DNA from: an uncultured Opitutia bacterium
GTDB taxonomy: Bacteria; Verrucomicrobiota; Verrucomicrobiia; Opitutales; Opitutaceae
NCBI GenBank assembly: GCA_903881475.1
Contig: CAIRTK010000028.1
Coordinates: forward strand, 6,194-70,193
Reading direction: 5' to 3'
Length of the DNA stretch: 64,000 nt
The stretch's first letter is position 1. Every line of letters starts with the position of its first letter. Of the stretch, positions 9,991-28,290 are shown one piece after another. The translations under genes were made by a program, and so were the position numbers. The notes beneath the pieces are model-generated. The model did not search any database and was not told the origin of the DNA. It worked only from the letters and a program-made list of their open reading frames with translations.

Positions 9991-12036
9991 ATGAGCCTGA
10001 GCTTTTTCCGCCTGAGTTTTGCCGCCTGCCTGCTGCCAGCCGCCTTCAGCGCGAATGCCCAGACCCCGCCGCCGGCCGCCACTCCGGCCCGCGCCCCCGC
10101 CGCCAGCGAGGAACTCGTCGGACCCATCAAGCTCGCCGACGCCGACATCGACACCGTGCTTGGCGCCCTGGAGATCTACACCGGCCGCACCATCCTCCGG
10201 CCGCAGGCGCTGCCCACCGCGAATTACACGCTCAAGCTCAACAAGCAGGTACCCAAATCCGAGGTCATCACCGCCCTCGAGACTTTGCTCGCCCTGAACG
10301 GCGTCGGCATCTCCCCCCTCGGCGACAAGTTCCTGAAGGTCGTCGCCCTCAACCAGGTCAAGACCGAGGCGCCCGAGATGATCGACGGTTCCACGCTCGG
10401 CCTCCCCGCCAGCGGCCGGATCGCCACCAAGCTCTTCCAGCTCGAGTTTCTGCGCGTCAATGAATTCGTCCCGCAGATCGCGCCCATGATGTCGCCCGGC
10501 GTCGCCAACGGCATCGTGCCCCTCGACAAGGCCAACGCCGTCCTCATCACCGACAGCGTCAGCAACCTCCAGCGCGTCGAGAACCTGATCGGCCTGATCG
10601 ACCAGCCCAACGCCCGCGGCCTCTCCCCGAAGTTCTACCCGCTCCACGGCGGCGCGAAGGCCAGCGACCTCGTCAACAAGCTCCACCTGCTCTTCCAAGG
10701 CCCGCTGCAGGCCCAGCTGGGGTCCGCGACCACCTACAGCGCCGACGACCGCACCAACCAGATCATCCTCCTCGCCGATCCCCGGCAGTATGCCCTCTTC
10801 GACGACCTCATCGCCAAGCTCGATACCGTCGCCGAGCCCAACACCCGCAACGAGATCATCTACTTGAAGCACGCGACCGCCAAGGATGTCGCCTCCCTGC
10901 TCAGCCAGCTCGTGTCCGGGCAGAACAACGCCACCCAGAAGGCCAACAGCGCCGGCTCCGTGCGCCCCACCGCGCCGGGCCAGCCGGCCCAGCCCCCGGC
11001 GGCGCCCAACGCCGCCTCTGCCGCCGTCATCGCCAGCCTGTCCGAAAGCACCAACCAGTTCAGCAGCCTGATCACCGTGCTGGCCGACGACCGCAGCAAC
11101 GCCGTCATCGTGTCCGGCACCGTGGACGACATCCGCCTCATCCGCGACCTCGTGAGCAAGATCGACATCGTCCTGGCCCAGGTCCGCATCGAAGTCGTCA
11201 TCGCCGAGGTCACCCTCAGCGACACGGACACCAGCGGCGTCAATGCCCTCAACCTCACCTTCGGCCCGGGCGGTTCCGGCGGCACCCATATCACCAATTT
11301 CGACACCGGCACCTCCGCCAACGGCATCGCGGGCTGGAACATCACCGGCGGCGTGGTCAACCCCCTTGCCTTCCAGGCAGCGCTCGGCAACACCGGCTCC
11401 AAGAACCTCGTGAAGATCCTGTCCGCCCCGACCATCGTCACGACCCATAACAAGCAGGCGACGATGACCGTCACCCAGCAGCAGCCCGTCATCACCGGGA
11501 CAACCTCCACGCCCACCACCGGCGCCACCACAACCTCCAGCGGTTTCTCCACCAGCTCCCAGGTCACCTACAAGGACATCGGCATCACCCTCAAGGTCAC
11601 TCCGCTCATCGGCGATGACGGCAACATCCAGCTGGATGTCGACCAGACCGTCGACGACGTCATCAGCAACGTCACCATCGACGGCAACCAGCAGCCCGTC
11701 ATCGGCCACCGCGAGGCCACCGGCTCCGTGACCGTGCAGGACGGGAAAATGATCGTGCTCGGCGGCCTGCAGCGCAGCTCGCGCAGCTTGTCCCGCACCA
11801 AGCTCGGCTTCCTCTTCGAAATCCCGATCATCAGCCAGCTCCTCGGCGGCCGGAACAACGACATCGAGCGCACCGAGCTGCTGCTCTTCATCCGGCCCCA
11901 CGTCCTGCGCCCGGAGGAAAGCACCGCCGACACGCAGAAGAAGATCAACGACCTCTCCAACAAGGAGCAGGTGAACCAATATCTGGTCGATCCGACGAAG
12001 CAGCCGAAGGAAAGCCTGATCGACAAGCTCAAGTAG
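9991..12036 (+). CDS. gspD: Type II secretion system secretin GspD
   Basis: Signal peptide MSLSFFRLSFAACLLPAAFSANAQ. N0/N1-type repeats are present (DTVLGALEIYTGRTIL, ALETLLALNGV, RVENLIGLIDQP). The C-terminal secretin core is VKILSAPTIVTTHNKQATM...YKDIGITLKVTPLIGDDGNIQL...GGLQ. Confidence 0.9.
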   Translation: MSLSFFRLSFAACLLPAAFSANAQTPPPAATPARAPAASEELVGPIKLADADIDTVLGALEIYTGRTILRPQALPTANYTLKLNKQVPKSEVITALETLLALNGVGISPLGDKFLKVVALNQVKTEAPEMIDGSTLGLPASGRIATKLFQLEFLRVNEFVPQIAPMMSPGVANGIVPLDKANAVLITDSVSNLQRVENLIGLIDQPNARGLSPKFYPLHGGAKASDLVNKLHLLFQGPLQAQLGSATTYSADDRTNQIILLADPRQYALFDDLIAKLDTVAEPNTRNEIIYLKHATAKDVASLLSQLVSGQNNATQKANSAGSVRPTAPGQPAQPPAAPNAASAAVIASLSESTNQFSSLITVLADDRSNAVIVSGTVDDIRLIRDLVSKIDIVLAQVRIEVVIAEVTLSDTDTSGVNALNLTFGPGGSGGTHITNFDTGTSANGIAGWNITGGVVNPLAFQAALGNTGSKNLVKILSAPTIVTTHNKQATMTVTQQQPVITGTTSTPTTGATTTSSGFSTSSQVTYKDIGITLKVTPLIGDDGNIQLDVDQTVDDVISNVTIDGNQQPVIGHREATGSVTVQDGKMIVLGGLQRSSRSLSRTKLGFLFEIPIISQLLGGRNNDIERTELLLFIRPHVLRPEESTADTQKKINDLSNKEQVNQYLVDPTKQPKESLIDKLK

Positions 12037-12052
12037 GCCGCGCGCCGCCGTA

Positions 12053-13777
12053 ATGATCGCGACCGCCCCTGCGTCCCTGCCCGAGTCCCTCGCCGCCCGC
12101 CTCACCGAGGAGCAGCGCCAGGCCGTCGCCGAGTCCCCGCGCGAGAAGCGCCTCGCGACCCTCGCCGCCGCGCTGAAGCTCTCCGAGCCCGAGGCCCTCA
12201 CCGGCCTCGCCGGGGCCGCCGGCCTGGACATCGCCACCAACCTCGAGCCCGACCTCGCCGCCCGCGGCCTCCTGCCGGCCCGGCTCGTGCACGATTACCA
12301 GGTCATTCCGATCCGCTTCGGCGTGCCCGCCGGGGAGCCGGACGCACCCGCCGCCCTTTCCACGCAACCCCTGCACCTGGCCACCGCCTGGCCGCCCGAT
12401 GACGTGATGGCCGACTGGCTCCGCACCTTCACGCCGCGGCCGCCCGTGTGGCATCTCGCCGTGCCGGAGCGCGTGCACCAGCTCATCATCGAGAATTTCG
12501 GCGTCGGCTCCGGCTCGCTCGAGGACGGCGACGACTCCTATGTCGCGCCGGAAACCGCGTCGCAGACCGAGGAGGTCGTGGACGAGGACGCCGCCGTGGT
12601 GCGCTTCGTCACCGACGTGATCTCGCAGGCGGTCGAGGATCAGGCGACCGACATCCATTGGGAGCCGCAGGAGGGCCAGCTGCGCATCCGGTACCGCGTC
12701 GACGGCCTGCTCGTCCCCGTGCCTGTGCCGCAGAACCTCCTGCGCTTCCAGGACGCCATCATCTCGCGCCTCAAGATCATGGCGCGCCTCAACATCTCGG
12801 AGAAGCGCCTGCCGCAGGACGGCCGCATCAATTTCAGAGCCAACGGCACGACGCTCGACATCCGCGTCTCGACCATCCCCACGATCTACGCCGAGTCCAT
12901 CTCGCTCCGGCTCCTGAACCAGAAGAAGGAGGCCTACACGATGGACCGCATCGGCATGAGCGCCGAGGAGCAGGCGCAGATCACGCAGATCCTCGACTAC
13001 CCGCACGGCATCGTGCTCGTGACGGGCCCCACCGGCTCCGGCAAGAGCACCTCCCTGAACGCGTTCCTGCGGAAGATCAACTCCACGGACCTCCGCATCA
13101 TCACCATCGAGGACCCGATCGAATACGAGGTGCCCGGCGTGAACCAGATGCAGGTGCGCCCGGAGATCGGGCTCACCTTCGCCGATGCGCTCCGGCACGT
13201 GCTCCGGCAGGATCCCGACGTGATCATGGTCGGTGAAATCCGCGACAAGGACACCGCCGAGATCGCCATCCGCGCCTCGCTCACCGGCCACTTGGTGTTC
13301 TCCACGCTCCACACCAACGACGCGCCCGGCGCCATCACCCGCCTCATCGACATGGGCATCGAGCCGTTTCTCGTCGCCTCCGCCATCGAACTCGTCATCG
13401 CCCAGCGCCTGGTCCGCCGCCTCTGCCCGCAGTGCGCGCGGCCCGCCCCGGTCTCAAAGGTGAAGCTGATCGAGAGCCTCGCCATCCTCGGGTGCAACGC
13501 GTCCGAGGCCGAGCTCATCACGGAGCTCAACACGCCCGTCGGCTGCGACCGGTGCCGCGGCACCGGCTACCGCGGCCGCATCGGCATCTTCGAGATCTTC
13601 CGGCTCAACGACGAGATGCACGAGCTGGTGCTGAAGCACGAAAGCACGCGCACCCTCGCCGAGACCGCCCGCCGCAACGGCATGCGCACCCTCGGCCAGA
13701 GCGGCTGGGAAAAGGTGAAGGCCGGCTACACCACCCTGGACGAAGTCCTGCGCGTGATCACGGTGACGGAGAAATGA
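12053..13777 (+). CDS. gspE: Type II secretion ATPase GspE
   Basis: Contains a T2SSE N-domain, Walker A GPTGSGKST, Walker B/Asp box IMVGEIRD, His box TGHLVFSTLHTN and the tetracysteine CPQC...CDRC motif. Confidence 0.93.
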   Translation: MIATAPASLPESLAARLTEEQRQAVAESPREKRLATLAAALKLSEPEALTGLAGAAGLDIATNLEPDLAARGLLPARLVHDYQVIPIRFGVPAGEPDAPAALSTQPLHLATAWPPDDVMADWLRTFTPRPPVWHLAVPERVHQLIIENFGVGSGSLEDGDDSYVAPETASQTEEVVDEDAAVVRFVTDVISQAVEDQATDIHWEPQEGQLRIRYRVDGLLVPVPVPQNLLRFQDAIISRLKIMARLNISEKRLPQDGRINFRANGTTLDIRVSTIPTIYAESISLRLLNQKKEAYTMDRIGMSAEEQAQITQILDYPHGIVLVTGPTGSGKSTSLNAFLRKINSTDLRIITIEDPIEYEVPGVNQMQVRPEIGLTFADALRHVLRQDPDVIMVGEIRDKDTAEIAIRASLTGHLVFSTLHTNDAPGAITRLIDMGIEPFLVASAIELVIAQRLVRRLCPQCARPAPVSKVKLIESLAILGCNASEAELITELNTPVGCDRCRGTGYRGRIGIFEIFRLNDEMHELVLKHESTRTLAETARRNGMRTLGQSGWEKVKAGYTTLDEVLRVITVTEK

Positions 13778-13925
13778 TGCGTGCTCCGCCGCAGGGAAAT
13801 TGGGCGATTGCAGCTGGGAGATGGAAATCCTGCTCTCTGCCTGCGGAAGCTCTCCTGATTCAGCACTTCCATCTCCCATCGCCAATCTCCCAACTCCGCC
13901 GGCCGCTTGGCGGCCGGTTTTCCTG

Positions 13926-15152
13926 ATGCCCCGCTTCACCTACAGTGCCCGCGACCACAGCGGGAAAAACATCGCCGACGTACTGGAGGCGCCGAGCCGC
14001 AAGGACGCGCTCCGGCTCCTCGCGGCGCGCGGGCTGCAGGTCGTCGCGGTCCAGGAGGCCGGCGGCGGGCGGGCGGCCCGGAGCGTGGTCGGTGCGGCGG
14101 CGCCGCCCGTCGAACTCACGCGCAAGCACCGGCTGCCGTTTCTCGAGGCGCTGCATGACCTCCTGACCAGCGGCATGTCGGCGGGCGAGGCGGTGCGGCT
14201 GCTCTCGGTGCGCATCAAGGAGCCCGGGCTGCGCACCCTCAGCGGCGGCTTGTGGGAGCGCCTGAGCGAGGGCGCGCCGCTTTCGCGCGCCATGGGGGAG
14301 TTTCCCGCCGTGTTCGATCCCTCCACCGTCAGCCTCATCCAGGCGGGCGAGGCCACCGGCTCGCTCAAGGACACGCTCGAACGGCTGATCGCCCACCTGA
14401 GCGAGCAACGCGACCTCCGGGCCAAGCTGCTCTCCGCCCTCGCGTACCCGGTCCTGCTGATCGTCGTGGCCTGCGGCCTCGTGCTCTTCTTCCTCTTTTT
14501 CCTGCTGCCGCGCCTGCAGACGCTCTTCGCCTCGCTCCATGGCGAGCTGCCCCTTTCCACCAAGATCCTCGTCGGGGGCGCGAATTTCGCCCTACACTAC
14601 GGCCCGTTTATCGCGGTGGCCGCGGTGCTGGGGGGAATTTCCTTCTGGCGCTGGCGGCAGACGGAGGCCGGGCGCCTCGCGACCGACGCGTGGCTGCTGC
14701 GGCTGCCGCTCATCGGCCCGTTCGTCGTTTCCCAGACGGTGCTGGCGTTCAGCCAGACGCTCGGTGTGCTGCTGGCCAACGGCATCACCGCGGTCGAGGC
14801 GCTCCGCATGACCGAGCGGCAGCTCGCGAACCGCGTGCACCGGCGGGCGTTTCACGACGCGACCGACCGCGTCGTCGAGGGCGAGGCCCTCTCCAGTTCC
14901 CTGGGCCGCACGGGCTGTTTCCCCGACCTGGTGCTCGACCGGCTGACCGTCGGCGAGAACACCGGCAATGTCGTGCCCAGCCTCCACGAGATCGCCCGCA
15001 ATTATCAGCGCATCATTTCCGGCCAGCTCAACGTCTTCGTGAACGTCATCGCCACCGTCGTCCTGCTGGCGGTGTTTGTGGTGGTCGGCTTCATCGCCTT
15101 CGCGATCGTGAGCGCAGTCTTCAAGGTCAGCTCCAGCTTCAAGCTGGGGTGA
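13926..15152 (+). CDS. gspF: Type II secretion inner-membrane platform protein GspF
   Basis: ATG at 13926 gives MPRFTYSARDHSGKNIADVLEAPSRKDALRLLAARGLQVV, the typical GspF/PilC start. There are two T2SSF-type repeats and three TM segments. The upstream part of the listed ORF is repeat DNA. Confidence 0.9.
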   Translation: MPRFTYSARDHSGKNIADVLEAPSRKDALRLLAARGLQVVAVQEAGGGRAARSVVGAAAPPVELTRKHRLPFLEALHDLLTSGMSAGEAVRLLSVRIKEPGLRTLSGGLWERLSEGAPLSRAMGEFPAVFDPSTVSLIQAGEATGSLKDTLERLIAHLSEQRDLRAKLLSALAYPVLLIVVACGLVLFFLFFLLPRLQTLFASLHGELPLSTKILVGGANFALHYGPFIAVAAVLGGISFWRWRQTEAGRLATDAWLLRLPLIGPFVVSQTVLAFSQTLGVLLANGITAVEALRMTERQLANRVHRRAFHDATDRVVEGEALSSSLGRTGCFPDLVLDRLTVGENTGNVVPSLHEIARNYQRIISGQLNVFVNVIATVVLLAVFVVVGFIAFAIVSAVFKVSSSFKLG

Positions 15153-15297: not shown

Positions 15298-17169
15298 TTA
15301 CGGCACTTCGTAAATCTCGACCAGCACCACGCCCGAGGCCCCGCCCACGCCGAGCGCTTCCGCGGAATAGACCCCCGGATCGAGCGTCACGAGCAGAACC
15401 GCATCCAAGCTGGCCGGATCCAATGAAAAGGCCCCGAGGCTGGCCGCGAGATTGCTGATGAGGGTTGAACCGCCCCAATTGTCATTGGTCAGGGTGGTGC
15501 CCTGCGGCAGATTAAGCTGGAGCTGCGGATCAGACATGAAGCCGGTGACGCCGTAGGTGCCGAGGGTCGGGCCCACCGCGCGGATCATCAGCGTTTTGGC
15601 GGTGGAGCCGCCGATCACAAAGCCCGCGATCAGCGGGTTGTCGTTGGACATGCTCGCCCGCGCCGAGAGGTTGATGAGCCGCGGGGTCGTCGGACTGAAG
15701 ACCGAGGGATTGGCGTCGTAGATTTCCGCCAGCACGGTTCCGGTCGTGTTGTTCACCCCGCTTACACTCGCCGAATACACCCCGGCTGGCAGGGTCGCGA
15801 CGAGGGCTGAATCCTTGCTGGTAGTGCTCGGCAGGGCGAATGCGCCCACGGCCGCCGCCACGCTCATCACGGTGGGATCGCCGCCCCAGTTGTCATTCGT
15901 CAGCAGCGGCACCGTCGCGCCCGAGGGGATGATGTTGAGGATCGGATCCGCCATCACTCCGGGAACACCATAGCTGGCGAGCGTCGGACCGATCCCGCGA
16001 ATCAGCAGCTGCTTGCTGCCGGAGGTGCCGGCGCCGCCCGTCACGAAGCCGGCAAACAGCACGTTGGCCCCCGTGCCGGAGACAATGCGGACCGAGACAT
16101 TGATGAGGCGGCCGGGATTGGCGGTGTTGACCACCGTCAGGCCGGCGGCGGTGCTGGTCACCGCGCCGGATCCGTTGCTCACGGTTACCGTGTACCCGGC
16201 CGCATCGCTGGCCTGGGCGTTGGAGATGAGATACTGGCTGGAGGTGGCCCCGGAGATGGGGCTGCCGCCTTTGGTCCACTGGTAGGTCAGGCCTCCGCCG
16301 GTCGCGCCCACGCTGAAGACCACCGAACCGCCCGTGGCCACCGTATGGCCCTGCGGCTGGCTCGTGATCACCGGCGCACTCGAGGCAGTGACGGTCAGCA
16401 CAGCCCCTGTGCTTGTGACGGTACCCGCCGAGTTGGTCACGACTGCGGTGTAAGTCCCCGCATCCGACGGCTGCACGTTGTTCAGCGTCAGGGCCGAACC
16501 GGTCTCGCCGGTGATCGCCACGCCGCCCTTGTCCCACTGGATGGTCGGCGCCGGATTGCCCGACGCCCCGACATAAAAAGTCGCCGTGCCACCAGTGGTC
16601 AGGGCCAGGCTTTGCGGCTGGGCCGTGATGGTGGGGGCCGACGTCGCCCCCGACGAGACGGTGATGGTGTAGAAATACGAATGGGTGTTGCCCGTGCCAT
16701 TCAGGCCCTGCCACGCCGTAAGGGTAACCAGATAGGCCCCGGCCGTCGTGGGAGTGCCGCTGAGCAGCAAGTTCGTCGTGTTGATTGTGCCCGAGGAGGT
16801 CAGCCCCGAATAATTCATCCCCGGCGGAAACGAGCCCGTGACCGACCATGACTGGGTCGCCGTTTCAGTGCCCGTCAGCGACAGGGCCACGACCACCGCT
16901 GTCCCCGTCGTGACACTGATGCCCGAGGCGGAGCCGCTGGAGGTGACCAGTTGCGCGGTGGTCGCACCCGCCAGGGAGTCGACGGCCCCGAGCGACGCCG
17001 CAGCCAGGGCCGCGGACTTCAGCACCGCGCCCGCCGGCGAGGCGGCGACCATTTCCTCCACCGCAGCGGCCACGCGCAGCACGGGCGTGCGCTGCAGCAA
17101 GGCGATGAGCAGGCCGGTCGGCACATTGAACCAATGCAGCCAGCGCTGCAGCGAGGAGGATAGTTTCAT
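15298..17169 (-). CDS. Secreted/surface Ig-repeat protein: He_PIG-like domain, two I-set Ig domains and two tandem ~130-140-aa C-terminal modules
   Basis: The two Ig repeats are APTITAQPQSLALTTGGTATFYVGASGNPAPTIQWDKGG...DAGTYTAVVTNSAGTVTS and APVITSQPQGHTVATGGSVVFSVGATGGGLTYQWTKGG...DAAGYTVTVSNGSGAVTS. The duplicated C-terminal module follows the pattern RLIN(V/L)S.R...(L/I)(F/I)AGFV.GG...K.L(L/M)IR..GPTL..YGV.G...DP.L......NDNWGG...GAF.L.....D....TL..GVYSA...G....G..L.EIY. The start is either ATG 17169 (MKLSSS) or GTG 17187. Confidence 0.8.
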   Translation of the reverse strand: MKLSSSLQRWLHWFNVPTGLLIALLQRTPVLRVAAAVEEMVAASPAGAVLKSAALAAASLGAVDSLAGATTAQLVTSSGSASGISVTTGTAVVVALSLTGTETATQSWSVTGSFPPGMNYSGLTSSGTINTTNLLLSGTPTTAGAYLVTLTAWQGLNGTGNTHSYFYTITVSSGATSAPTITAQPQSLALTTGGTATFYVGASGNPAPTIQWDKGGVAITGETGSALTLNNVQPSDAGTYTAVVTNSAGTVTSTGAVLTVTASSAPVITSQPQGHTVATGGSVVFSVGATGGGLTYQWTKGGSPISGATSSQYLISNAQASDAAGYTVTVSNGSGAVTSTAAGLTVVNTANPGRLINVSVRIVSGTGANVLFAGFVTGGAGTSGSKQLLIRGIGPTLASYGVPGVMADPILNIIPSGATVPLLTNDNWGGDPTVMSVAAAVGAFALPSTTSKDSALVATLPAGVYSASVSGVNNTTGTVLAEIYDANPSVFSPTTPRLINLSARASMSNDNPLIAGFVIGGSTAKTLMIRAVGPTLGTYGVTGFMSDPQLQLNLPQGTTLTNDNWGGSTLISNLAASLGAFSLDPASLDAVLLVTLDPGVYSAEALGVGGASGVVLVEIYEVP

Positions 17170-17399
17170 GGGGAAATACTTCTGCACAGACCGCGGGACA
17201 AACCTTGGGTGTCGGATAAAAATCCGCCTCTTCGGTTTTGCGGAATAGACGGCACTTATGAACGGATTGTTACCCTCCCCAAGCCGAGTTCAGCACCCGT
17301 GGGGCCGCCACTCTGCTAGCAGTGGTCATGCCGCGGCCACCGCCAGAGGGCAAAATCGGCGCCAAAGCGAGGGTGGTGTTGGAGCAGCCAGGCACGGGC

Positions 17400-17630
17400 T
17401 CAGTTGCAGCCGCAGCCGCTGCCGCCCACGCCGCGGCCGCCGTTGGCCGATTCCCGGGAAAAATAGATATGCTCCGACATTGCGGTACCCAGCGGATCGC
17501 GGTCCGGTCGCATGGCATAGCTGGCCAGGGTGGCGCGCTCCCACGGCTGGACGTTGACGCTGGTGCAGCCGGTGAAAAGCCCGGTCAGCAGGACAAGGAG
17601 CAGGAACGGGATGAGACGTGGGGATTTCAT
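17400..17630 (-). CDS. DUF4266-like small lipoprotein
   Basis: MKSPRLIPFLLLVLLTGLFTGC provides a lipobox. The C-terminus is glycine-rich and ends GGSGCGCN. At 76 aa it matches my recollection of the DUF4266 family, which travels with DUF3570. Confidence 0.75.
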   Translation of the reverse strand: MKSPRLIPFLLLVLLTGLFTGCTSVNVQPWERATLASYAMRPDRDPLGTAMSEHIYFSRESANGGRGVGGSGCGCN

Positions 17631-17684
17631 GGTATGGGCAATTGGAATGAGGTGGAACGCGTTGGACAGAAGAGGGCACGGGTT

Positions 17685-18275
17685 TCATTGTCTGTCTTTC
17701 TCGGCCAGCAGGGTTTCGACCTGGGTGCGCAGCTCCTTCTCGGTGGCGCTGCCGTGAAAACCCGCATGCACGAAGCGGACGCGGCCGTCGCGGCCCAGCA
17801 CATAGGAGGTCGGCATCGCGGGTACCTTCACCTTGCTCACGAGCTGTTTTTGCTGGTCGAGCAGCGTGGCAAAGGACGGATGGAATTTCTTCAGGAACCC
17901 TTCGTAGTCGACTGTCCGGTCGTCCACGCTCACCGCCACCACGACCAGCCCGCGCGCCGCGTAATCGGCCTGGATCCGGGCATAGACCGGAAACGACGCC
18001 TTGCACGGCGCACACCACGAGGCCCAGAAATCCACGATGGTCACGTGACCAGCCGTCACGGGCAGCGGACCGCCGGTCAGCCCGGCTGTGGCCAGCGCGG
18101 GGAAGGCCTCGCCAGGCTTCAGCTCGGCGCGCACCGCCGGCACCGCCAGCGCGGCGAACAGTAGCATGACGACCGTAGCAGTCGAAGTAAGGAGGCTGGC
18201 GCGAGGCGCCAGGGCCGGCCCAGCCCCGTCACTTGGGCTGCTACGGTTCGGTGCGGAATTAAGTTGCGGCGACAT
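17685..18275 (-). CDS. TlpA/ResA-like membrane-anchored thiol:disulfide oxidoreductase (thioredoxin fold)
   Basis: ATG at 18275 gives MSPQLNS.... The TM anchor is TATVVMLLFAALAVPAV and the active site is DFWASWCAPCKASFP. It overlaps the apbE stop by 17 nt. The longer listed ORF (to 18842) is antisense-free but has no support. Confidence 0.85.
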   Translation of the reverse strand: MSPQLNSAPNRSSPSDGAGPALAPRASLLTSTATVVMLLFAALAVPAVRAELKPGEAFPALATAGLTGGPLPVTAGHVTIVDFWASWCAPCKASFPVYARIQADYAARGLVVVAVSVDDRTVDYEGFLKKFHPSFATLLDQQKQLVSKVKVPAMPTSYVLGRDGRVRFVHAGFHGSATEKELRTQVETLLAEKDRQ

Positions 18276-19254
18276 AGTTGAAGAATCCCCGCGTCTGCGC
18301 GCGGGCGTTGGCGGTGTGGAGCAGGCCCTCGGCGCCGGGAAAGGACTGGATGAAATCCACGCCTCTCGGCACGCCCAGCACGAAGGCCGTGGTCGAGAGG
18401 ACGCCGGCCTGCAGGCAGGTGGCCGCGATGACCGTCGCCTGCTGGCACCCATTCGCCACCGGCCAGCCGGTGCGCGGATCGATGATGTGGCCGTAGCGCT
18501 TGCCCCCGAGGGTGAAGCACCGGAGATAGTCACCCGACGAGGCGATGCCCCGGCTGCCCTGCAGCGCCACGCTGGCCGAGGGCGTGCCCGGTTTCGCCGG
18601 ATCCTCCAGCCCGATATGCCACGCCGGCCGGCCCGGCGGCGCACCCAGCGCGCGCAGGTCGTGGCCGAAATCGACGAGCACATTGGCGAGACCGTGGTCC
18701 AGCGCGATCTGCGCGACAACATCCACGGCGTATTCCTTGCCAAAGCCGCCGAAATCGAGCGCCATGCCGGGCTCGGGCAGGAACACCTTGCCCGCGGCGC
18801 GCTGCAGCTTCGCCCAGCCCGTGAGGCGCCGGGCCTCGGCAATCTGCGCCTCCCCGGGGATCACGGGGTGCTCCGCCTTGTAATTCCACAGGCGGATCAG
18901 CGGGAGCGCCGTGGGATCGAGCACGCCCTGGGTCATGAAGTGCAGGGTCTCGCAGAGCTTCAACATCTGCTCCATCTCGGGATCGATCGCGATCCACTCG
19001 CGCCCCGCCGCAGCGTTGATGCGGCTCACCAGGCTGTCCGGCCGGAAGCGGGAATACCTGGCCTCGAAGGCCCCCACCCAAGCGACCGCGGCCTGCTCAA
19101 ACCGCGCAGCCTGCCCGGGGTCCTTCGTCGCGTATTGGACCTCGCAGTTCGTGCCGAGCGCGGGAAAGGTCAGCCGGTGCAGCGGGATGTCCACGCCCAC
19201 GGCGCCGGCAGGCAGCGTCGGAGTCTGGCGGCGGGATTCGGTGAGCAGGGCCAT
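18259..19254 (-). CDS. apbE: FAD:protein FMN transferase (ApbE family)
   Basis: 331 aa. The runs ...ALGTNCEVQY...YSRFRPDSLVSRINAAAG...DPTALPLIRLWNY...ALDFGGFGKEYAVD...IASSGDYLRCF...GKRYGHIIDPRTGWP are typical ApbE blocks. Confidence 0.9.
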   Translation of the reverse strand: MALLTESRRQTPTLPAGAVGVDIPLHRLTFPALGTNCEVQYATKDPGQAARFEQAAVAWVGAFEARYSRFRPDSLVSRINAAAGREWIAIDPEMEQMLKLCETLHFMTQGVLDPTALPLIRLWNYKAEHPVIPGEAQIAEARRLTGWAKLQRAAGKVFLPEPGMALDFGGFGKEYAVDVVAQIALDHGLANVLVDFGHDLRALGAPPGRPAWHIGLEDPAKPGTPSASVALQGSRGIASSGDYLRCFTLGGKRYGHIIDPRTGWPVANGCQQATVIAATCLQAGVLSTTAFVLGVPRGVDFIQSFPGAEGLLHTANARAQTRGFFNYVAAT

Positions 19255-19264
19255 GGCGCGGAGC

Positions 19265-20419
19265 TTACCAGGAGAACTTCACGCCAGCGGTAGTGATGGC
19301 GGCCCGCGGATAGGCGCTGGAGGACGTGACGTGATCCGTGCCGTGCATCTGATACTCCTCGTAAGCGACATTGAACTCCCAGGAGGCGTTGACGGTCCAG
19401 ATCGCCTTCAGGCCGTAGTTATAGCTGCGGAAGGCGGAAAGCCGGTAGTCGGCGGAGTAAAACGGGCCAGCCGGGTTCGGCAGCTGGGACGGCGTGTAGC
19501 TGACGCCATCAAACGAAACAGCGTAGAAATTGGCCGCGGTCTGTTCGTAAAGCCGGAGGCCCGGCCGCAGGATGAGATGCTCCCCGATCTTTTGGAACCA
19601 CGCGAGGTCGACCGTGTGCGCCGTTGTGCCAAAGGTGTCGTGGTAAAACCGGTAGCTTGCCTCCACCGCCCCGTTCAACTTGGGCACCGACCGGTTGATC
19701 GCGGCGTAGGCGGTCCATTTGCTGCGCTGGTCCGGCCGGTTTTCCGCGTAAAGCAGCGGCAGGTACAGGCCGGGGAATACCTCCGTCCTTTTTTCCACGA
19801 CGCGGTAGGGATCGGCCAGATAACCCGTACTCCGGCCATAGCCGACGTTGAACGTGAGCGAGGTCAGCGGGTCGAGGAGCTGGGTGACGCCCGTAATGAG
19901 ATCCAGGCCGTGCTTCGGCTTCACGGTGTCGAGATAGCGCAGGGTCACCCGGTCATCCGTGCCCGCGGCACCAAGGAGCAGCGAGGTGTTCTTCTGGTTG
20001 AAATCGGTCAGCGTATTCACCGACCAGCCGTTGGAAACGTAATCGCTCTCCCGGCTGTAGGCATAGCCGGCGGTGACATTGAGGCCCGAAAACTGGCGGG
20101 AAAGATCCATGCTCCACGCCTTGCGCCGGTCGGAGGTATAGGAAAGCGGCACCGGGCCGCCCGGGGTGGCCGGCGGCGCCCCGTTCGGCGTTGCCCCCGC
20201 GATCGCATCGATCGCGCTCTGCAGTTTCAAGTGCATGTCCGGGCCGAGGTCCTGTTGCACCAGCCCGTATTGCGCCTGGACCGCCACGCGGCCGTCCGCC
20301 TCGCGGTAGTCCTCGTAATCGTAGGTCACGGAGTCCTCTGCCCGGGCCATCCGGGGAGCAAGCCAAGCCAGTAAACCGGCCACCGCCAGCGCGCGACACG
20401 GGACGTGCATTGACCTCAT
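19265..20419 (-). CDS. DUF3570-like predicted outer-membrane beta-barrel protein
   Basis: The start is taken at MRSMHVPCRALAVAGLLAWLAPRMARAED, which includes a signal peptide. The sequence has an alternating beta pattern, is rich in Y/G/T and ends with the terminal GVKFSW. The ORF portion upstream of 20419 runs into a palindromic repeat. It contains DAIAGAT at 20189-20209. Confidence 0.72.
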   Translation of the reverse strand: MRSMHVPCRALAVAGLLAWLAPRMARAEDSVTYDYEDYREADGRVAVQAQYGLVQQDLGPDMHLKLQSAIDAIAGATPNGAPPATPGGPVPLSYTSDRRKAWSMDLSRQFSGLNVTAGYAYSRESDYVSNGWSVNTLTDFNQKNTSLLLGAAGTDDRVTLRYLDTVKPKHGLDLITGVTQLLDPLTSLTFNVGYGRSTGYLADPYRVVEKRTEVFPGLYLPLLYAENRPDQRSKWTAYAAINRSVPKLNGAVEASYRFYHDTFGTTAHTVDLAWFQKIGEHLILRPGLRLYEQTAANFYAVSFDGVSYTPSQLPNPAGPFYSADYRLSAFRSYNYGLKAIWTVNASWEFNVAYEEYQMHGTDHVTSSSAYPRAAITTAGVKFSW

Positions 20420-20766: not shown

Positions 20767-21297
20767 TCAGCGCATGATCTCCACCGACGAGACGCGGATC
20801 GAGGCATTGAGCTGCATCGGGCTTGCGCGGTCGGACTGCAGGCTGAACTGCTCGATCCCGATGTAGGGCGAGCGCTTGGTCAGCTCGAGGTAGAAGCGCT
20901 TCAGCGACTCCCAGTCGGTCTTCTGCAGGTTGAACTGCACCGTATGCACCGCGAACTGGCCGCTCCGCTCGCTCTGCGGCGTGTCGTTGGTGAACCGCAC
21001 CCCCTGGCTCCGCGCAAGGGCGTTCAGTTCGCCGACCAGGCGTGTGTCGTCGAGCGTCCGCGCGGGATCCAGGTTCTTCACCGCCTGCTGGGCATGGGCC
21101 TCGATGGCCGCACGGTCCCGCAGCCACTGCTGCTGGTCCGCCAGGGCGACCGTCGTCGCCCGCTGCGTCCGCCAGAAGGCCGCCGCGCGCTTGCTGAACG
21201 CCGACAGCAGCATGACCGCGACCAGCGCCGTGATCGCCACGAGCAGCAGCTTCTCGCGCAGGAGCCGCTGGAGGAAATAGGCCTTGAAGGATCTCAT
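20767..21297 (-). CDS. gspM: GspM-like T2SS assembly protein (bitopic)
   Basis: 176 aa with a single N-terminal TM segment (KLLLVAITALVAVMLLSAF). It is the last gene of the pseudopilin operon and its ATG overlaps the upstream stop as ATGA. The call rests on position and topology, not on a recognised motif. Confidence 0.55.
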   Translation of the reverse strand: MRSFKAYFLQRLLREKLLLVAITALVAVMLLSAFSKRAAAFWRTQRATTVALADQQQWLRDRAAIEAHAQQAVKNLDPARTLDDTRLVGELNALARSQGVRFTNDTPQSERSGQFAVHTVQFNLQKTDWESLKRFYLELTKRSPYIGIEQFSLQSDRASPMQLNASIRVSSVEIMR

Positions 21298-22439
21298 GAC
21301 GCGGCGGCGGGCTTCAGCGCCTCGGGGTGGAAGGTGATGACGAGGGTGAACGTCATAACGTTGTCCCGTGTGCGCTGGTCGCGCACCTCGACCTTCTCGC
21401 AGGCCGGCAGGTCGCCGAGCGCCGAGCGGAACGTGGAAACCTCGGCGGGCGACGTCGTCTGCGCGTCCACCTTCAGCGTGTACAGCCCGTCCGTCGTGGC
21501 GCGCAGGAACTGGATGGAGACCGGCCGGATCGTGCCGCTCACGAGCGAGATCATCTCGAGCGGCAGAAGGCGCTTGGTCGAGAGTTCGTTGATGTGGGTG
21601 GCGAGGCTCTGCTGCGTCATGATCTGGTCCACGACCGGCTGCTGGGCCGCGACCTTCAGCTCGCGGCCCTTCTGCCAGAAGCCGGCGCCGTACAGGGCCG
21701 CCCAGCCGAGCACGATCAGGCCGATCGCCGCCGCACAGCCGAGGAATCCGCGCCAGAGCATCACGTCGCGGGCCCGCGCCCGGCGCAGCGCGGCGAGTTC
21801 CGCCTTGTCCCGCACGTCCATCGTCGCGGCCAGCGCCGCGGGCAGCCGCGAAACCCGCGACTCCGCCCGGAAGACAAATTCATCCTCGCTGCCCGCGGCC
21901 GCCACCGGCTCCGGCGGCGCGCCCAGCTCGATGACTTCCCGGCTGCCGCCGGCGGCGCGCAGCAGTTCGTCCCGCACGCGGGTCTTTTCCGCGTCATCGG
22001 CCGCGGCCGGGAGCGGCCGGAACAGCACCGCCGCGGGCACCGTCCCTTGGTCCCAGTGGATCGCGGTCAGCCCGTCGGCCGAGGTCACCAGCAGCGTGGT
22101 CGCCGGGGAAACCTCGCCGCCGAGCAGCGCGGCAAACGCCGGCAGCACGAGTTCGGCGCCGTTCCATGACTCCACCTGCTCGCGGGTGAAGCGCCGGCGG
22201 TAGGCCGCAAAGACCAGGGCCCGCTCCGCCCCGGGCACCCAGAAGAAGCCATGGTACAGTTGCGCGGGCGGAAAGGGCGCCAGCGCCTCCAGCCCCAGTT
22301 CCGCCTGGACCGCCGCCTCGGCGGGCGTCGCCGCCGGGGCCATGGGAATGGCCCGGGCGAAGAACAGCGCATCGGGCAGCAGCACCACCTTGGCGGCGGG
22401 TACGCCGGCCTTGGGCGGGTTGGGGGAAGGCTGGGTCAT
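21294..22439 (-). CDS. gspL: GspL-like T2SS assembly protein (cytoplasmic domain, one TM segment, periplasmic domain)
   Basis: 381 aa with a central TM segment FLGCAAAIGLIVLGWAALYGAGFW. It is translationally coupled (ATGA) to gspK upstream and gspM downstream. The call rests on position and topology. Confidence 0.5.
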   Translation of the reverse strand: MTQPSPNPPKAGVPAAKVVLLPDALFFARAIPMAPAATPAEAAVQAELGLEALAPFPPAQLYHGFFWVPGAERALVFAAYRRRFTREQVESWNGAELVLPAFAALLGGEVSPATTLLVTSADGLTAIHWDQGTVPAAVLFRPLPAAADDAEKTRVRDELLRAAGGSREVIELGAPPEPVAAAGSEDEFVFRAESRVSRLPAALAATMDVRDKAELAALRRARARDVMLWRGFLGCAAAIGLIVLGWAALYGAGFWQKGRELKVAAQQPVVDQIMTQQSLATHINELSTKRLLPLEMISLVSGTIRPVSIQFLRATTDGLYTLKVDAQTTSPAEVSTFRSALGDLPACEKVEVRDQRTRDNVMTFTLVITFHPEALKPAAAS

Positions 22440-23617
22440 GCGGATGGGACAGCGGGCGGAGGAGTTGGAATCGCAGGATTTTCCTGAATTTCCAAGAGAG
22501 TAAATGGATAGTTGAGCTGCGGCGGCGGAGTCGCGGCGGTCGAGGTGCTGGAACTGGCGGACGTGGACGTGGAGGCCGCGGTGGCGGTGGATGTGACCGT
22601 GGTCGTCGTGCCAGACGTGGCGGACCGGGTGGAGGTTGCATTCGTCTGCACGATCGTGGCGCCACCCTGCGGCGCCACCACCGCGGTCAGGCGGAACTCC
22701 TCGCGGCCCTCGCGGATCGTCACGTTCACCCGCAGCGCCCGGACCTGGATGCCGGCCAGCGGCGGCAGGGCCGCCGAGCCCAGCACGGTGCTGGCCTGCA
22801 GCGCCGTGGTGAACCAGCTCGGGCCCTGCGAGGCATAGGTGCCGGTCCCGGCGAGAAAGTCGTTAAAGCGCTGCTGCTGCGAAAGGTCGGGGAAGCCGAT
22901 GGCGGACAGCACGTCCGGCGTGGCCGCATTGAGGTTGGCCTGCTGGTAATTATAGAGGGAAAATGTCGCGACAAACCGCCGCCACAGGTCGTTGGGCCGG
23001 CCCTGCTCGTCGTAGAACATCTCGCGGGCGTAATCGATCGCCGCCAGTTCCGAATACGACCGCAGCGGGCGCGACGGCGGCAGATAGGGCAGCGCGGATT
23101 GCTCGTAATCCGGCGCCTGGCCCGTGGCAGGCACATAATTCGGCTGCATCCAGCCCAGCAGTGCGTCCGTGAGATGCTCCGCGTCGGCCTGCTTGAGCGA
23201 CCAGGCCTTGAACAGGTTGGTCAGCGTCCCGGCATCGACCCGCGACAGGGAGATCTTGCCGCTCTCGTCCTGCAGGGTGACTTCCGCCGTGCACCCTTCG
23301 CGCGGCGTCCAGCCCGCCCACCCGAGCGGATCGCCCCAGCCTTCCGCGGGACTGTGCAGCGCCCCGTTGGCCTGGCGGAAGTCCTCGAGCGTCGCCAGCG
23401 TGACCTCGAGGGCCGAATACGCCTCCCGCCGCAGGCGCCGCGCCGAAGCCTCGCGCGCCTCGACCAGCAGGTCTGTGCTCGCCTGCTCGATGAAGAGCAC
23501 CAGCGCAAACGACGTGAATAGCAGCGTCACCAGGACAATGATGAGCACCGAGCCCGACTCTTTCCGGGTGGAGCGCGCGCTCCCGGCCGAATCCTGGCAT
23601 GACAGTCCTCGGTTCAT
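22436..23617 (-). CDS. gspK: T2SS minor pseudopilin GspK
   Basis: The N-terminal hydrophobic helix GSVLIIVLVTLLFTSFALVLF is followed by the region ...SGKISLSRVDAGTLTNLF...DALLGW...L.SYSELAAI, typical of the GspK crossover/helix-hairpin-helix region. The C-terminal tail is S/T-rich. Confidence 0.8.
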   Translation of the reverse strand: MNRGLSCQDSAGSARSTRKESGSVLIIVLVTLLFTSFALVLFIEQASTDLLVEAREASARRLRREAYSALEVTLATLEDFRQANGALHSPAEGWGDPLGWAGWTPREGCTAEVTLQDESGKISLSRVDAGTLTNLFKAWSLKQADAEHLTDALLGWMQPNYVPATGQAPDYEQSALPYLPPSRPLRSYSELAAIDYAREMFYDEQGRPNDLWRRFVATFSLYNYQQANLNAATPDVLSAIGFPDLSQQQRFNDFLAGTGTYASQGPSWFTTALQASTVLGSAALPPLAGIQVRALRVNVTIREGREEFRLTAVVAPQGGATIVQTNATSTRSATSGTTTTVTSTATAASTSTSASSSTSTAATPPPQLNYPFTLLEIQENPAIPTPPPAVPSA

Positions 23618-23619
23618 GG

Positions 23620-24282
23620 TCAGAAATTGGGCATGCCGGCCGTCGGGGCGCTGAGCACGATGACGGTTTCCCGCGTCATCTTCCCGTAGGCGAATTTCAG
23701 GCGCAGGCGCTGCGGGGTCTGCAGCTGGCCGGTGTTATCCTTCCGGATCGCGGTCTCCGTCTTCCACGTCTTGAAGTCGGAGTCGTAATAATCGTAGGCC
23801 AGCGCGGTGACGAGCGGCGTGATGACGAGCTCGCGCGGCGGGTCGTCGCCAAATTTTTTCTCCAGGCGCGACTGCCACAGCAGCACGAGCCCCTGGCTGT
23901 CGCGCGCCTGCAGCGAGCACACTACCTCCGGCAGCGGCCGGTCCGGCCAGTTGAAGAGGCGGCACCCGGCCGTCAGCTCGAAGGTCAGAAGGTTGTCCGA
24001 CTGTCCGCTCAGCGGGCGGACCTCCTGCGCCGTGATGGGCGCGCCGCCGGCGACGGCATAGGGTGGCAGCGCAGCCGCGCGGAGTTGCTGGTCGAGAAAG
24101 CGCGTGACCGCCCGCACATGCCGGTCGAACAGGCGGACATCCGTGTTGCGGCCCCAGAGCTCGCCCATCGAGAACACAAACACGTTGAGCGAAACCAGCA
24201 CCAGCGCCGTCAGCGCCAGCGCGAGGAGGATTTCGAGCAGGGTGAAACCGGCGCGGATTTTCGATTTCGTCACTCTGAGCAC
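23620..24282 (-). CDS. gspJ: T2SS minor pseudopilin GspJ-like
   Basis: The prepilin N-terminus VLRVTKSKIRAG|FTLLEILLALALTALVLV follows GTG 24282 (alternative GTG 24273). An ATG at 24465 is ATGA-coupled to the gspI stop, but it would add a 72-aa leader made of repeat DNA. Confidence 0.7.
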   Translation of the reverse strand: MLRVTKSKIRAGFTLLEILLALALTALVLVSLNVFVFSMGELWGRNTDVRLFDRHVRAVTRFLDQQLRAAALPPYAVAGGAPITAQEVRPLSGQSDNLLTFELTAGCRLFNWPDRPLPEVVCSLQARDSQGLVLLWQSRLEKKFGDDPPRELVITPLVTALAYDYYDSDFKTWKTETAIRKDNTGQLQTPQRLRLKFAYGKMTRETVIVLSAPTAGMPNF

Positions 24283-24381
24283 AGCGAAGTCCAAGCACTG
24301 GGGCCTGGCTCGACATCCAGCCGGAGTACGTTGCGAGTTTAGACCGCGCCCAGCTGGATTCTTGACTTCGTTCAGAATGAC
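24269..24381. repeat. Palindromic element inserted between gspI and gspJ (GTCACTCTGAGC...GTTCAGAATGAC)
   Basis: GTCACTCTGAGCACAGCGAAGTCCAAG (24269-24295) is an imperfect inverted repeat of CTTGACTTCGTTCAGAATGAC (24361-24381). It translates as the familiar VILNEVKNP-type repeat peptide. Confidence 0.75.
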
Positions 24382-24461
24382 AAAGCGGGATTGCAGACCC
24401 ACTCCGGATTCCGACCCCATCTGCCATCTACTAAATTCCAACTTCCCGGCTGCGGCCTTTT

Positions 24462-24908
24462 TCATGGGTTCGCCCCCTGCAGCCCCTTGATGCGGTTCTG
24501 CGCATTCTGGCGCAGCGTGGAGTTCGCCACCGGGTCGGCCCAGGTCGGGCGGTCCACATTGAAATGCTCGGTCACCGTCTGCAGTCCGCCCCCGGTGGGT
24601 TCCGTCAACTCGCACACAAACGTCACGAGGAACAGGTCGGCGGTGTTGGTGGCCTCGATGGTGGCGTGCCATTTCACATGGCGGCCGCCGAGGGAATCGT
24701 AATCCCCGCCCTGCTCCGCCTTGTCGTGGTCGGGCTCCGCCAGCAGCTGGGCCCGGGCGAAGCTGACGTCCTGGTCGTACTGGTTGCCGCGCTGGGCCTG
24801 CTCGTAGGCGTTGAGGACGTTTACATACCCCGCGCCCAGCACGACGGCGGCGAACGCGAAGATCGCGAGCGCGACCATGACCTCAAGCAGGGTGAAGGCG
24901 CGGCGCAT
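24462..24908 (-). CDS. gspI: T2SS minor pseudopilin GspI
   Basis: MRRA|FTLLEVMVALAIFAFAAVVLGAGY... at 148 aa. It starts 1 nt after the gspH stop. Confidence 0.8.
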   Translation of the reverse strand: MRRAFTLLEVMVALAIFAFAAVVLGAGYVNVLNAYEQAQRGNQYDQDVSFARAQLLAEPDHDKAEQGGDYDSLGGRHVKWHATIEATNTADLFLVTFVCELTEPTGGGLQTVTEHFNVDRPTWADPVANSTLRQNAQNRIKGLQGANP

Positions 24909-24909
24909 G

Positions 24910-25614
24910 TCAGGTCGGGTTGTCCCCGCGCGCCAGCACCTGGGCGCAGGTCCACGGGTCGATGGCCAGGATGCGGGCGGACCCGCCGGCGCGGAACTGC
25001 ACCCGGCAAGCCGTGCAGGTGCCGTCGGGATAAAACGTGACGGAGGGCATCGTCTGGGTGTCCACGAGCGTGCCGCCGATCAGGATCGTGCTGCCGCCAG
25101 TCTGCGCCGACAAAAATTCCACCGTCAGGTCCTGCGCTGGCGGCACCGGCAGGGATTTCTTCACGGTGCCGTCGTCCAGCACGAACGCCTTCTCCTTGGG
25201 ATCGAAGCTCAGCCGCACCTCCTGCTCGGACTTGAGCGCGGCCTGGCGCGACTTCAGGACAGCCTGCCAGAACACATCCTCCGCCGTGGCGGGTTTGTCC
25301 CCGATCAACTGGGCCGAGCCGGTCACCAGCGCACCGGCCAGCAGCGCCATAAGCGCCAGCGCGAGGAGAATCTCCAGCAGCGTGAACGCTGCGCGGCGCG
25401 GCGCGGCTGCGGACGTTTCCCGGGTCGGGCGAGTTGCCTGGCCGCCATCGCCCCGGCGGAGAAGGATCCCCGACGAGCCGCCCCCTTGACCAGAGCCATC
25501 GGCTGAAAGCGGATCGCTGATCTCTGCCTTCTGACTTCTGGCCTCCGGCCCCCGGCCTCTGACCTCCGTCAGCGGCAAGCCGCCCACCCTCCCCCGGCAA
25601 TGGACCAGGCGCAT
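24910..25614 (-). CDS. gspH: T2SS minor pseudopilin GspH-like with anomalously long pre-FTLLE leader (start uncertain)
   Basis: The mature-type N-terminus AA|FTLLEILLALALMALLAGALV begins at 25386. Hand translation finds in-frame start codons upstream only at ATG 25614, GTG 25587 and TTG 25575. Confidence 0.65.
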   Translation of the reverse strand: MRLVHCRGRVGGLPLTEVRGRGPEARSQKAEISDPLSADGSGQGGGSSGILLRRGDGGQATRPTRETSAAAPRRAAFTLLEILLALALMALLAGALVTGSAQLIGDKPATAEDVFWQAVLKSRQAALKSEQEVRLSFDPKEKAFVLDDGTVKKSLPVPPAQDLTVEFLSAQTGGSTILIGGTLVDTQTMPSVTFYPDGTCTACRVQFRAGGSARILAIDPWTCAQVLARGDNPT

Positions 25615-25624
25615 CGGCAAACCC

Positions 25625-26074
25625 TCACCAGTTGCCGATATCGTCCGCGGTGCCCTCGGTCTTGTCGGGGCCCTTGGAGAAGATGTCATAGCCGTTCTTG
25701 TTATGGACGCCGGGATAGCGGTAGATGTAGGGCTCGCCCCACGGATCGAGGGGGATCTTGGAGTCGGAGAAATAGGGACCGGTCCACTGGCCCTCCTTGC
25801 CGCTCGGCGCGGTGATCAGGGCCTGGAGGCCCTCCGCGGTCGAGGGATAGTCGCCCATCTTGATGCGGTAGCTGGTGAGCGGGAGCTTGATGGACTCGCG
25901 CACGAAGAGCTTGGCGGTCGAGGTCTGGGCATCGCCGAAAATGCTGTCGAGGTTGGTGACCGCCAGGCCGACGAGCAGCCCGAGGATGGCCAGGGCGATC
26001 ATGATCTCCAGGAGCGTGAAACCCCGGCGCAGCGCGCGGAGGGGAGAGCGGGACGAGCGGGGTGACAGAAGCAT
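25625..26074 (-). CDS. gspG: T2SS major pseudopilin GspG
   Basis: ATG at 26074 gives MLLSPRSSRSPLRALRRG|FTLLEIMIALAILGLLVGLAV. The C-terminal GspG signature is GPYF...DPWGEPYIYRYPG...YDIFSKGPD. Confidence 0.92.
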   Translation of the reverse strand: MLLSPRSSRSPLRALRRGFTLLEIMIALAILGLLVGLAVTNLDSIFGDAQTSTAKLFVRESIKLPLTSYRIKMGDYPSTAEGLQALITAPSGKEGQWTGPYFSDSKIPLDPWGEPYIYRYPGVHNKNGYDIFSKGPDKTEGTADDIGNW

Positions 26075-28240: not shown

Positions 28241-28290
28241 CCACAGGAGCAGTCATTTCAATGCTCTCGCGATCCTAAAGGAGTCGCCGT

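Follow-up and report, generated by a model that had tools for sequence, protein, structure and literature searches.

A stretch of DNA of 64 kb from an uncultured Opitutia bacterium (contig CAIRTK010000028.1; the whole stretch is called the window here) contains a locus of four genes that is very likely the Opitutae (Verrucomicrobiota) copy of a published flavinylation system, in which a protein of the family DUF3570 receives flavin mononucleotide (FMN) from the transferase ApbE encoded beside it, and in which a thioredoxin-like protein and the lipoprotein DUF4266 are the other two members. DUF3570 was named as a new ApbE substrate by Méheust, Huang, Rivera-Lugo, Banfield and Light (eLife 2021; PMC8238504), who combined a survey of 31,910 genomes with biochemistry. 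Flavinylation of DUF3570 by the linked ApbE and the four-gene cluster are already known, and the copy described here is an ordinary further member. The four genes are read in the same direction, on the minus strand of the window, and each starts with ATG; with the signal peptide and the predicted flavinylation motif of DUF3570 they are, in window coordinates:

19265-20419, minus strand: DUF3570 protein, 384 amino acids (aa), PF12094 with E = 7.5e-66; Sec signal peptide followed by a predicted 18-strand outer-membrane beta-barrel; predicted flavinylation substrate.
20339-20419, minus strand: signal peptide of DUF3570, residues 1-27, ending in ARA (AxA site), a rule-of-thumb assignment.
20189-20209, minus strand: flavinylation motif D71-A-I-A-G-A-T77, codons GAT GCG ATC GCG GGG GCA ACG.
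18259-19254, minus strand: ApbE FAD:protein FMN transferase (FAD, flavin adenine dinucleotide), 331 aa, PF02424 with E = 1.5e-72.
17685-18275, minus strand: TlpA/ResA-type periplasmic thiol-disulfide oxidoreductase, 196 aa, PF08534 (Redoxin) with E = 2.8e-15; N-terminal signal or anchor.
17400-17630, minus strand: DUF4266 small lipoprotein, 76 aa, PF14086 with E = 2e-21.

The locus had been picked out in a first-pass annotation made from the letters alone. When the open reading frame (ORF) positions were rechecked, its gene coordinates were exact, and so were the 10-nt gap between DUF3570 and apbE, the 17-nt overlap of apbE and tlpA and the 54-nt gap between tlpA and the DUF4266 gene. The four families it had named all matched Pfam far above threshold in hidden Markov model searches (for DUF3570 against PF12094, 223.1 bits with a cut-off of 25), translation codon by codon returned D-A-I-A-G-A-T at 20189-20209, and the WCAPC of the thioredoxin (18003-18017) and the GGSGCGCN end of the lipoprotein (GCGCN at 17403-17417) were found as described. 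NCBIfam holds no model for DUF3570, for DUF4266 or for an Ig-repeat protein encoded downstream of the module, and scans of the module for promoters, terminators and Rfam families yielded nothing regulatory.

In the published work, the DUF3570 protein of Chlorobium luteolum was fluorescent, and hence flavinylated, solely with its cognate ApbE; two conserved [S/T]GA[S/T] motifs were recognised in 228 ApbE-linked DUF3570 proteins, and the signal of the C. luteolum protein was abolished only by mutating both motif serines (PMC8238504). DUF3570 deprived of its signal peptide was flavinylated in the cytoplasm of E. coli though it was insoluble. The survey listed 543 clusters of ApbE, DUF3570, a thioredoxin-like protein and DUF4266, of which 227 also contained DsbD and 316 did not, and the iron transporter VIT1 was present in 25 clusters. 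The thioredoxin-like protein and the CXC-tailed DUF4266 were proposed as redox partners in a hybrid thioredoxin/flavin electron path (PMC8238504), and iron reduction has been suggested in the literature for the end acceptor of the system. That DUF3570 is the client of the adjacent ApbE, as the first-pass annotation supposed, is therefore borne out experimentally for a homologue, its proposal of TlpA and the Cys-tailed lipoprotein as redox partners is the one made in 2021, and its remark that the four-gene association recurs agrees with the 227 + 316 published clusters and with our own census. Its description of the system as uncharacterised and annotated only as DUFs was out of date. Since the system was published and tested in 2021 (PMC8238504), the reading is a rediscovery, and its value lies in a raw sequence having led to the same conclusion as a survey of 31,910 genomes plus biochemistry.

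Gene neighbourhoods were counted in two sets of loci, considering only those with enough DNA downstream of DUF3570. Genome loci came from a scan seeded with a 23-sequence alignment, whose best 80 matches were all from Opitutae, and metagenome loci, to which no taxonomy was assigned, came from a single metagenome scan seeded with two-site homologues. ApbE followed DUF3570 in 69/76 Opitutae species loci and 48/55 metagenome loci, a co-occurrence far above any background, and the corresponding counts were 69/72 and 42/47 for TlpA, 69/70 and 38/40 for DUF4266 and 0/55 and 8/31 for DsbD; the Ig-repeat protein followed the module in 48/54 and 26/30, respectively. Opitutus terrae is one of the species with the cluster. 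An apbE gene is missing between DUF3570 and TlpA and/or DUF4266 in ten loci (L003, L074, L015, L021, L076, L097, L120, L152, L154 and L160), two of which (L003 and L074) also lack TlpA. As no apbE stands beside DUF3570 in these loci, their genomes must either encode ApbE elsewhere or lack it.

Within the DUF3570 protein, T77 (codon at 20189-20191) is the predicted FMN acceptor and equals the first of the two published sites, an assignment made by comparison with two-site homologues and not with the C. luteolum sequence itself. Chance matches to [DN]..[STA]GA[ST], estimated from composition, number 0.008 for a protein of 384 aa and 0.35 for the 16,607 aa of the supported ORFs of the window; the pattern was observed twice in these 16,607 aa, and both hits flank apbE. 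Conservation was read from 95 full-length diverse homologues, which are representatives of clusters at 50% identity (at most about 50% identical pairwise), and the motif columns proved to be the best conserved stretch of the family. The acceptor column contained T (60) or S (35) in all 95 sequences, the G75 and P78 columns were invariant (95/95 each), and A76 was conserved in 87, I73 in 71 and D71 in 70, the last being replaced by N in 22. At the position three residues before the acceptor (-3), S was found in 74 homologues, T in 11 and A, as in the window, in nine. Ala at this position is a minority among the diverse homologues and dominant in Opitutae; among the close homologues, all of which have the motif (120/120), it is the commonest -3 residue. 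It is highly improbable that DUF3570 is a mere porin or structural barrel whose motif is structural and whose neighbouring ApbE serves another client. An Ala at -3 in place of the consensus S/T and the missing second published site would suit such a protein, but all 95 diverse homologues have T/S at the acceptor position, conservation in the family peaks at G-A-[TS]-P, apbE begins 10 nt past DUF3570 in a gene order that is kept across loci, and homologues have been flavinylated experimentally (PMC8238504).

A second [STA]GA[ST] between the first site and the barrel core is absent from the window protein, from 119/119 Opitutae-like proteins and from 65/95 diverse homologues. In two-site homologues it lies 20-100 residues downstream of the first, in an expanded loop right behind strand 3 which is also the place of long low-complexity inserts. 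Longer DUF3570 proteins (430-512 aa; P0143-P0225, locus L080) have a large low-complexity Ser/Thr/Gly/Pro insert in the loop after the first site, and these inserts often contain one to four extra [STA]GA[ST] sites, P0189 having four. Lineages seem to differ in how many flavins a barrel carries.

The DUF3570 protein had 1,534 homologues, the closest from Opitutae/Opitutaceae (Verrucomicrobiota), and one locus, in a metagenome-assembled genome named 'uncultured Opitutae bacterium', was 96% identical. Its signal peptide is MRSMHVPCRALAVAGLLAWLAPRMARA, with a mean Kyte-Doolittle hydropathy that peaks at 2.3 over 11 residues. An AlphaFold2 model built from an 85-sequence alignment (mean predicted local distance difference test, pLDDT, 91.6; predicted template modelling score, pTM, 0.84) consisted of the signal-peptide helix followed by 18 beta-strands, whose connections are by turns very short (2-4 residues) and longer (13, 7, 36 and 11 residues). 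A Foldseek search of the PDB with this model returned solely outer-membrane barrels, among them PgaA and, at a probability of 1.00, those of FadL, OccD, PelB, BcsC and TonB-dependent receptors. Model and search agree with the outer-membrane barrel that had been predicted from the signal peptide and the terminal GVKFSW, which ends in an aromatic residue, and we infer that DUF3570 is an outer-membrane beta-barrel of 18 strands.

In the model, strand 3 comprises residues 62-78 and the motif forms its last residues, with T77-P78 ending the strand at the start of the 13-residue loop 2. A motif lying inside a membrane strand had been named beforehand as an outcome that would speak against flavinylation, and here the result was borderline: the motif does end a barrel strand, but the acceptor Thr is at the end of that strand beside the loop and not in mid-membrane. 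In outer-membrane barrels the termini and the short turns are periplasmic, whereas the long loops are outside. By this general rule strand 3 would run outward, with T77 on the long-loop side. Residues H63, K65 and Q67, in register with D71 and T77, are polar, and the alternate residues L64, L66 and I70 are hydrophobic; because the strand positions that share the register of T77 are polar, a flavin on T77 is probably directed towards the lumen, close to the outer rim of the barrel. Neither a barrel nor the outer membrane is mentioned for DUF3570 in PMC8238504, and a barrel is not mentioned in the 2024 AlphaFold follow-up (PMC11334425). If true, a flavin on an outer-membrane barrel would set DUF3570 apart from all other ApbE clients by its place in the outer membrane, and would make it a candidate haem-free exit route for electrons from the diderm cell.

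The ApbE of the window matched V. cholerae ApbE (6nxi) with E = 1.5e-34, its residue 28 aligning with chain residue 10, and keeps both SGDY and GHIIDPRTG, including the catalytic His equivalent to V. cholerae His257. Its catalytic domain begins at about residue 28, and the 27 residues before it are polar and rich in Pro. As a measure of hydrophobicity, we took the mean Kyte-Doolittle hydropathy of the most hydrophobic 11-residue stretch within the 60 residues upstream of the domain. The median for ApbE was 1.04 in 74 Opitutae loci and 0.76 in 41 metagenome loci, compared to 2.57 for TlpA and 2.70 for DUF4266; only three ApbE values reached 2.0, and in all three the stretch crossed the start codon. 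By hydropathy and domain boundary, no signal peptide, lipobox Cys or twin-arginine motif was present in the approximately 115 N-termini (74 + 41) of DUF3570-linked ApbE, and the ApbE of two more distant Verrucomicrobia loci likewise had no export signal. The signal peptide or lipobox that typically places members of the family outside the cytosol was accordingly not seen in this ApbE. The N-terminal peptide is nevertheless conserved, reading MA[FV][IV][AS]QS[HQ]R.PPP in Opitutae and MVL... elsewhere. A signal-less ApbE of this subfamily is not mentioned in the flavinylation literature that we searched. In a more distant Verrucomicrobia locus (L081, 9224-10223), apbE is in two pieces encoding 167 aa and 130 aa, and may thus be frameshifted or a pseudogene.

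As a rule, ApbEs are lipoproteins of the periplasm, and those known from the cytosol serve cytosolic clients (PMC12052999). A tag of the seven motif residues is sufficient for ApbE, and changing the D of the motif to A has a minor effect on flavinylation. Because ApbEs of this subfamily lack an export signal while their client is exported by Sec, flavinylation would come before export, and most likely it takes place on the unfolded precursor in the cytoplasm. The published cytoplasmic modification of an insoluble, signal-less DUF3570 and the sufficiency of the 7-residue tag fit this timing. Under the standard model, in contrast, ApbE would reach the periplasm by an unrecognised route and modify unfolded DUF3570 before its insertion by the barrel assembly machinery (BAM). 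The usual periplasmic lipoprotein nature of ApbEs and the failure of a cytosolic E. coli-type ApbE to complement (PMC12052999) argue for this model, and the conserved N-terminal peptide could be a targeting or docking element. We nonetheless consider periplasmic flavinylation rather unlikely, as the 74 + 41 N-termini contain no hydrophobic segment, lipobox Cys or twin-arginine motif, only about 27 residues precede the catalytic domain, and cytosolic ApbEs are documented (PMC12052999). A cytoplasmic ApbE, which we prefer, raises the question whether a flavinylated chain can pass Sec.

The remaining two proteins point to an electron path based on thiols. TlpA, with its active site WCAPC, matched the Pfam families Redoxin, Thioredoxin_8 and AhpC-TSA, and its N-terminal hydrophobic segment has a mean hydropathy of 3.1. 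The NCBIfam equivalog models for ResA, DsbE and TlpA matched it below their cut-offs, and it is therefore taken as a member of the family rather than as a named orthologue. DUF4266 has a lipobox, LFTG-C22 (17565-17579), with Thr at +2, and ends in a Cys-Gly-Cys tail on a Gly-rich stretch; a Cys after the DUF4266 signal peptide was also found in the distant loci L080 and L081. ApbE would transfer the FMN part of FAD to the hydroxyl of the last motif residue, as has been shown for a homologue, which here would be T77. TlpA, in the periplasm, and DUF4266, an outer-membrane lipoprotein with a flexible Cys-Gly-Cys end, could then act as a dithiol relay in electron exchange with the flavin on the barrel. 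DsbD (PF02683) was absent: tblastn with the DsbD of L081 gave a best E value of 0.31 in the window and no match in 79 Opitutae loci (0/55 of those that could be evaluated). The locus thus falls in the published subclass of 316 clusters that are without DsbD, and since none is near this copy, the reductant would be a membrane protein of the DsbD/CcdA type encoded elsewhere.

Thioredoxins with WCxPC of the TlpA/ResA/CcmG type are normally reductants, which speaks for electrons flowing towards the flavin from TlpA and against the converse arrangement, in which the flavin would be the electron sink of a system similar to a sulfhydryl oxidase, dithiols being oxidised through the Cys-Gly-Cys of DUF4266 and the electrons passing to the flavin and then to oxygen or another acceptor. 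The G-C-G-C-N end of DUF4266 on its Gly-rich tail resembles the C-terminal CGC shuttle arm of yeast Erv2p, and DsbD is lacking from this and all evaluable Opitutae loci, both of which would agree with oxidation. However, DsbD, which supplies reductant, adjoins in 227 published clusters (PMC8238504) and in 8/31 metagenome loci, and with the normal role of such thioredoxins this makes an oxidative direction quite improbable.

Several points weigh against flavinylation of T77 and against the reductive path to a flavin in the lumen. The Ala at -3 departs from the published S/T consensus, even if 9/95 diverse homologues share it, and the window protein has a single site, while the C. luteolum protein lost its flavin only after both sites were mutated; use of a single site with Ala at -3 as acceptor is putative in this protein. 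The absence of an export signal from ApbE was judged from hydropathy and domain boundary and not by a dedicated predictor. With DsbD missing from the window and from the Opitutae loci (0/55), a source of reductant is not encoded nearby, and the inferred lumen-facing, extracellular-side placement of T77 depends on strand alternation and on the general rule for long loops.

The second hit to the motif pattern in the window lies on the other side of apbE, in the Ig-repeat protein encoded downstream of the module:

15298-17187, minus strand: Ig-repeat protein, 629 aa, with a probable start at M7 (17169); Ig_3 and I-set domains, two copies.

Translation confirmed its D-S-L-A-G-A-T at 16960-16980. 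Two more distant Verrucomicrobia loci have a homologue behind the module as well, one of them after DsbD; this is L081, where DsbD and then the Ig-repeat protein come after DUF4266. Across 107 N-termini, the most conserved part is L-G-x-x-[HDNQ]-x-x-[AS]-G-A-[TS], in which 99 sequences have the G, 105 the A and 106 T/S; it is located 50-68 residues from the start. It belongs to an N-terminal module (LLQRTP ... L-G-x-x-[HDNQ]-x-x-[AS]-G-A-[TS]; loci L001-L079, L081 and L090-L160), and only this module is conserved, whereas copies differ in how many Ig repeats they have (2-9) and in their C-terminal domains. Distant copies often have DAVSGAS or DAVSGAT, which is a standard ApbE motif. The C-terminal half of the window protein (15298-16240, minus strand, residues ~350-629) consists of two repeats of ~130 aa with RLIN.S.R ... 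LIAGFV.GG ... IR..GPTL..YGV.G...DP ... NDNWGG, to which neither Pfam nor NCBIfam has a match. A word-indexed search with the N-terminus found 26 proteins, mostly fragments, and the flavinylation literature searched does not mention the protein.

The Ig-repeat protein is a candidate for a fifth component and a further ApbE substrate, a role that we hold to be somewhat less probable than not. In an extended system, which we regard as possible but would not favour, the module would be a flavin-based conduit over the outer membrane, with the Ig-repeat protein as a further ApbE substrate whose N-terminal segment docks in or on the barrel and whose Ig stalk reaches outward, similar to MtrCAB. In 48/54 Opitutae loci and 26/30 metagenome loci the gene follows the module in the same orientation, the motif of the protein is conserved in the 107 N-termini with DAVSGAS or DAVSGAT in many copies, and the pattern occurs twice in 16,607 aa compared to 0.35 expected, both times flanking apbE. 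The restriction of conservation to the N-terminal module, the small effect of D-to-A and the sufficiency of the 7-aa tag are consistent with such a role. Furthermore, neighbouring Ig-repeat and DUF3570 proteins tend to agree at -3 (Ala matched by Ala in 46/52 pairs, Ser by Ser in 21/29), although shared ancestry confounds this relation. On the other hand, the commonest first residue of the Ig-repeat motif is His (56/107) and not Asp, a few copies have degenerate motifs (SSAS, SAAS and SKAS), and the motif might mark a processing site. The first 70 residues were also modelled poorly by AlphaFold2 (pLDDT 52-61, low-confidence helices before a confident Ig domain), and the export signal is ambiguous in the Opitutae copies. 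DSLAGAT could also simply close a signal peptide, but this is less likely because in distant homologues a further segment upstream of the motif is the better signal candidate. If the protein is a client, its matching motif would place a further ApbE substrate beside the module. It is unlikely, though conceivable, that all these elements combine, that is, that the module as published is incomplete, with the accepted topology mistaken on one point, and comprises a cytoplasmic ApbE with FMN-bearing precursors threaded through Sec, a flavin at the outer rim or lumen of the barrel and a fifth, Ig-repeat protein, forming an electron conduit of flavin and thiols through the outer membrane in Verrucomicrobia and relatives.

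Compared with known systems, the closest is that of C. luteolum (DUF3570 ABB24424.1 and ApbE ABB24423.1) and the DsbD-type clusters (PMC8238504), which have the same four Pfam families, the conserved flavinylation motif and the same proposed relay from thioredoxin through CXC to flavin. Going by the published description and not by a direct sequence alignment, the window copy differs in that it carries a single site where C. luteolum has two, has Ala for the consensus S/T at -3 and belongs to an Opitutae host, and also in its signal-less ApbE, the motif-bearing Ig-repeat protein downstream and a type II secretion operon upstream. In the DUF2271/PepSY-like systems, an orphan apbE likewise stands beside a DUF with a flavinylated [S/T]GA[S/T] site of extracytosolic location (PMC8238504), but the small, soluble DUF2271 domain has a haem membrane protein as its partner, whereas here an outer-membrane barrel has thiol partners. 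NqrC/RnfG (FMN_bind) and NqrB/RnfD share the ApbE chemistry and the D-x-x-(s/t)-G-A-(T/S) motif; unlike DUF3570, they have unrelated folds and belong to ion-pumping complexes of the inner membrane or periplasm. The cytoplasmic ApbE of Klebsiella pneumoniae, which serves fumarate reductase maturation (PMC12052999), is also without a signal, but its client is cytoplasmic, while the one here is exported by Sec. Porin-cytochrome conduits of the MtrCAB type offer an analogy, in that an outer-membrane barrel houses redox cofactors able to link the periplasm with the exterior and has a lipoprotein or surface partner; they differ in that the cofactor here would be covalent flavin and not haem, the barrel itself would carry it and has 18 instead of 26 strands, and there is no sequence relationship. 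The 18-strand barrel, the signal-less ApbE and the Ig-repeat neighbour are without mention in the flavinylation literature searched, and we present them as leads and not as results; the three side observations (a flavin apparently on the barrel, a cytoplasmic-looking ApbE and a possible Ig-repeat client) make the role of the DUF3570 system more testable.

A type II secretion-like gene set flanks the module in two parts, the one convergent with it and the other directly upstream on the same strand after a gap of 347 nt:

9991-15152, plus strand: gspD (secretin), gspE and gspF, convergent with the module; Secretin, T2SSE and T2SSF.
20767-26149, minus strand: type II secretion-like operon (gspG, pseudopilins, gspK, L-like and M-like); T2SSG, N_methyl, T2SSK_1st and a weak T2SSM match.

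About 48/79 Opitutae loci share this arrangement, compared to 5/80 metagenome loci. A functional link to type II secretion was downgraded for this reason, the synteny being strong in Opitutae and rare elsewhere, and the neighbourhood is probably lineage synteny. Beyond this operon, a stretch at 26240-28366 is low in guanine and cytosine (0.52 compared to about 0.67) and contains an ORF of 666 aa with a GGSFGG serine-hydrolase-like motif, by eye of the prolyl-oligopeptidase/S9 type. The ORF adjoins a tRNA-Arg(CCT) at 28291-28366, and the stretch may be a horizontally acquired insertion at this tRNA.

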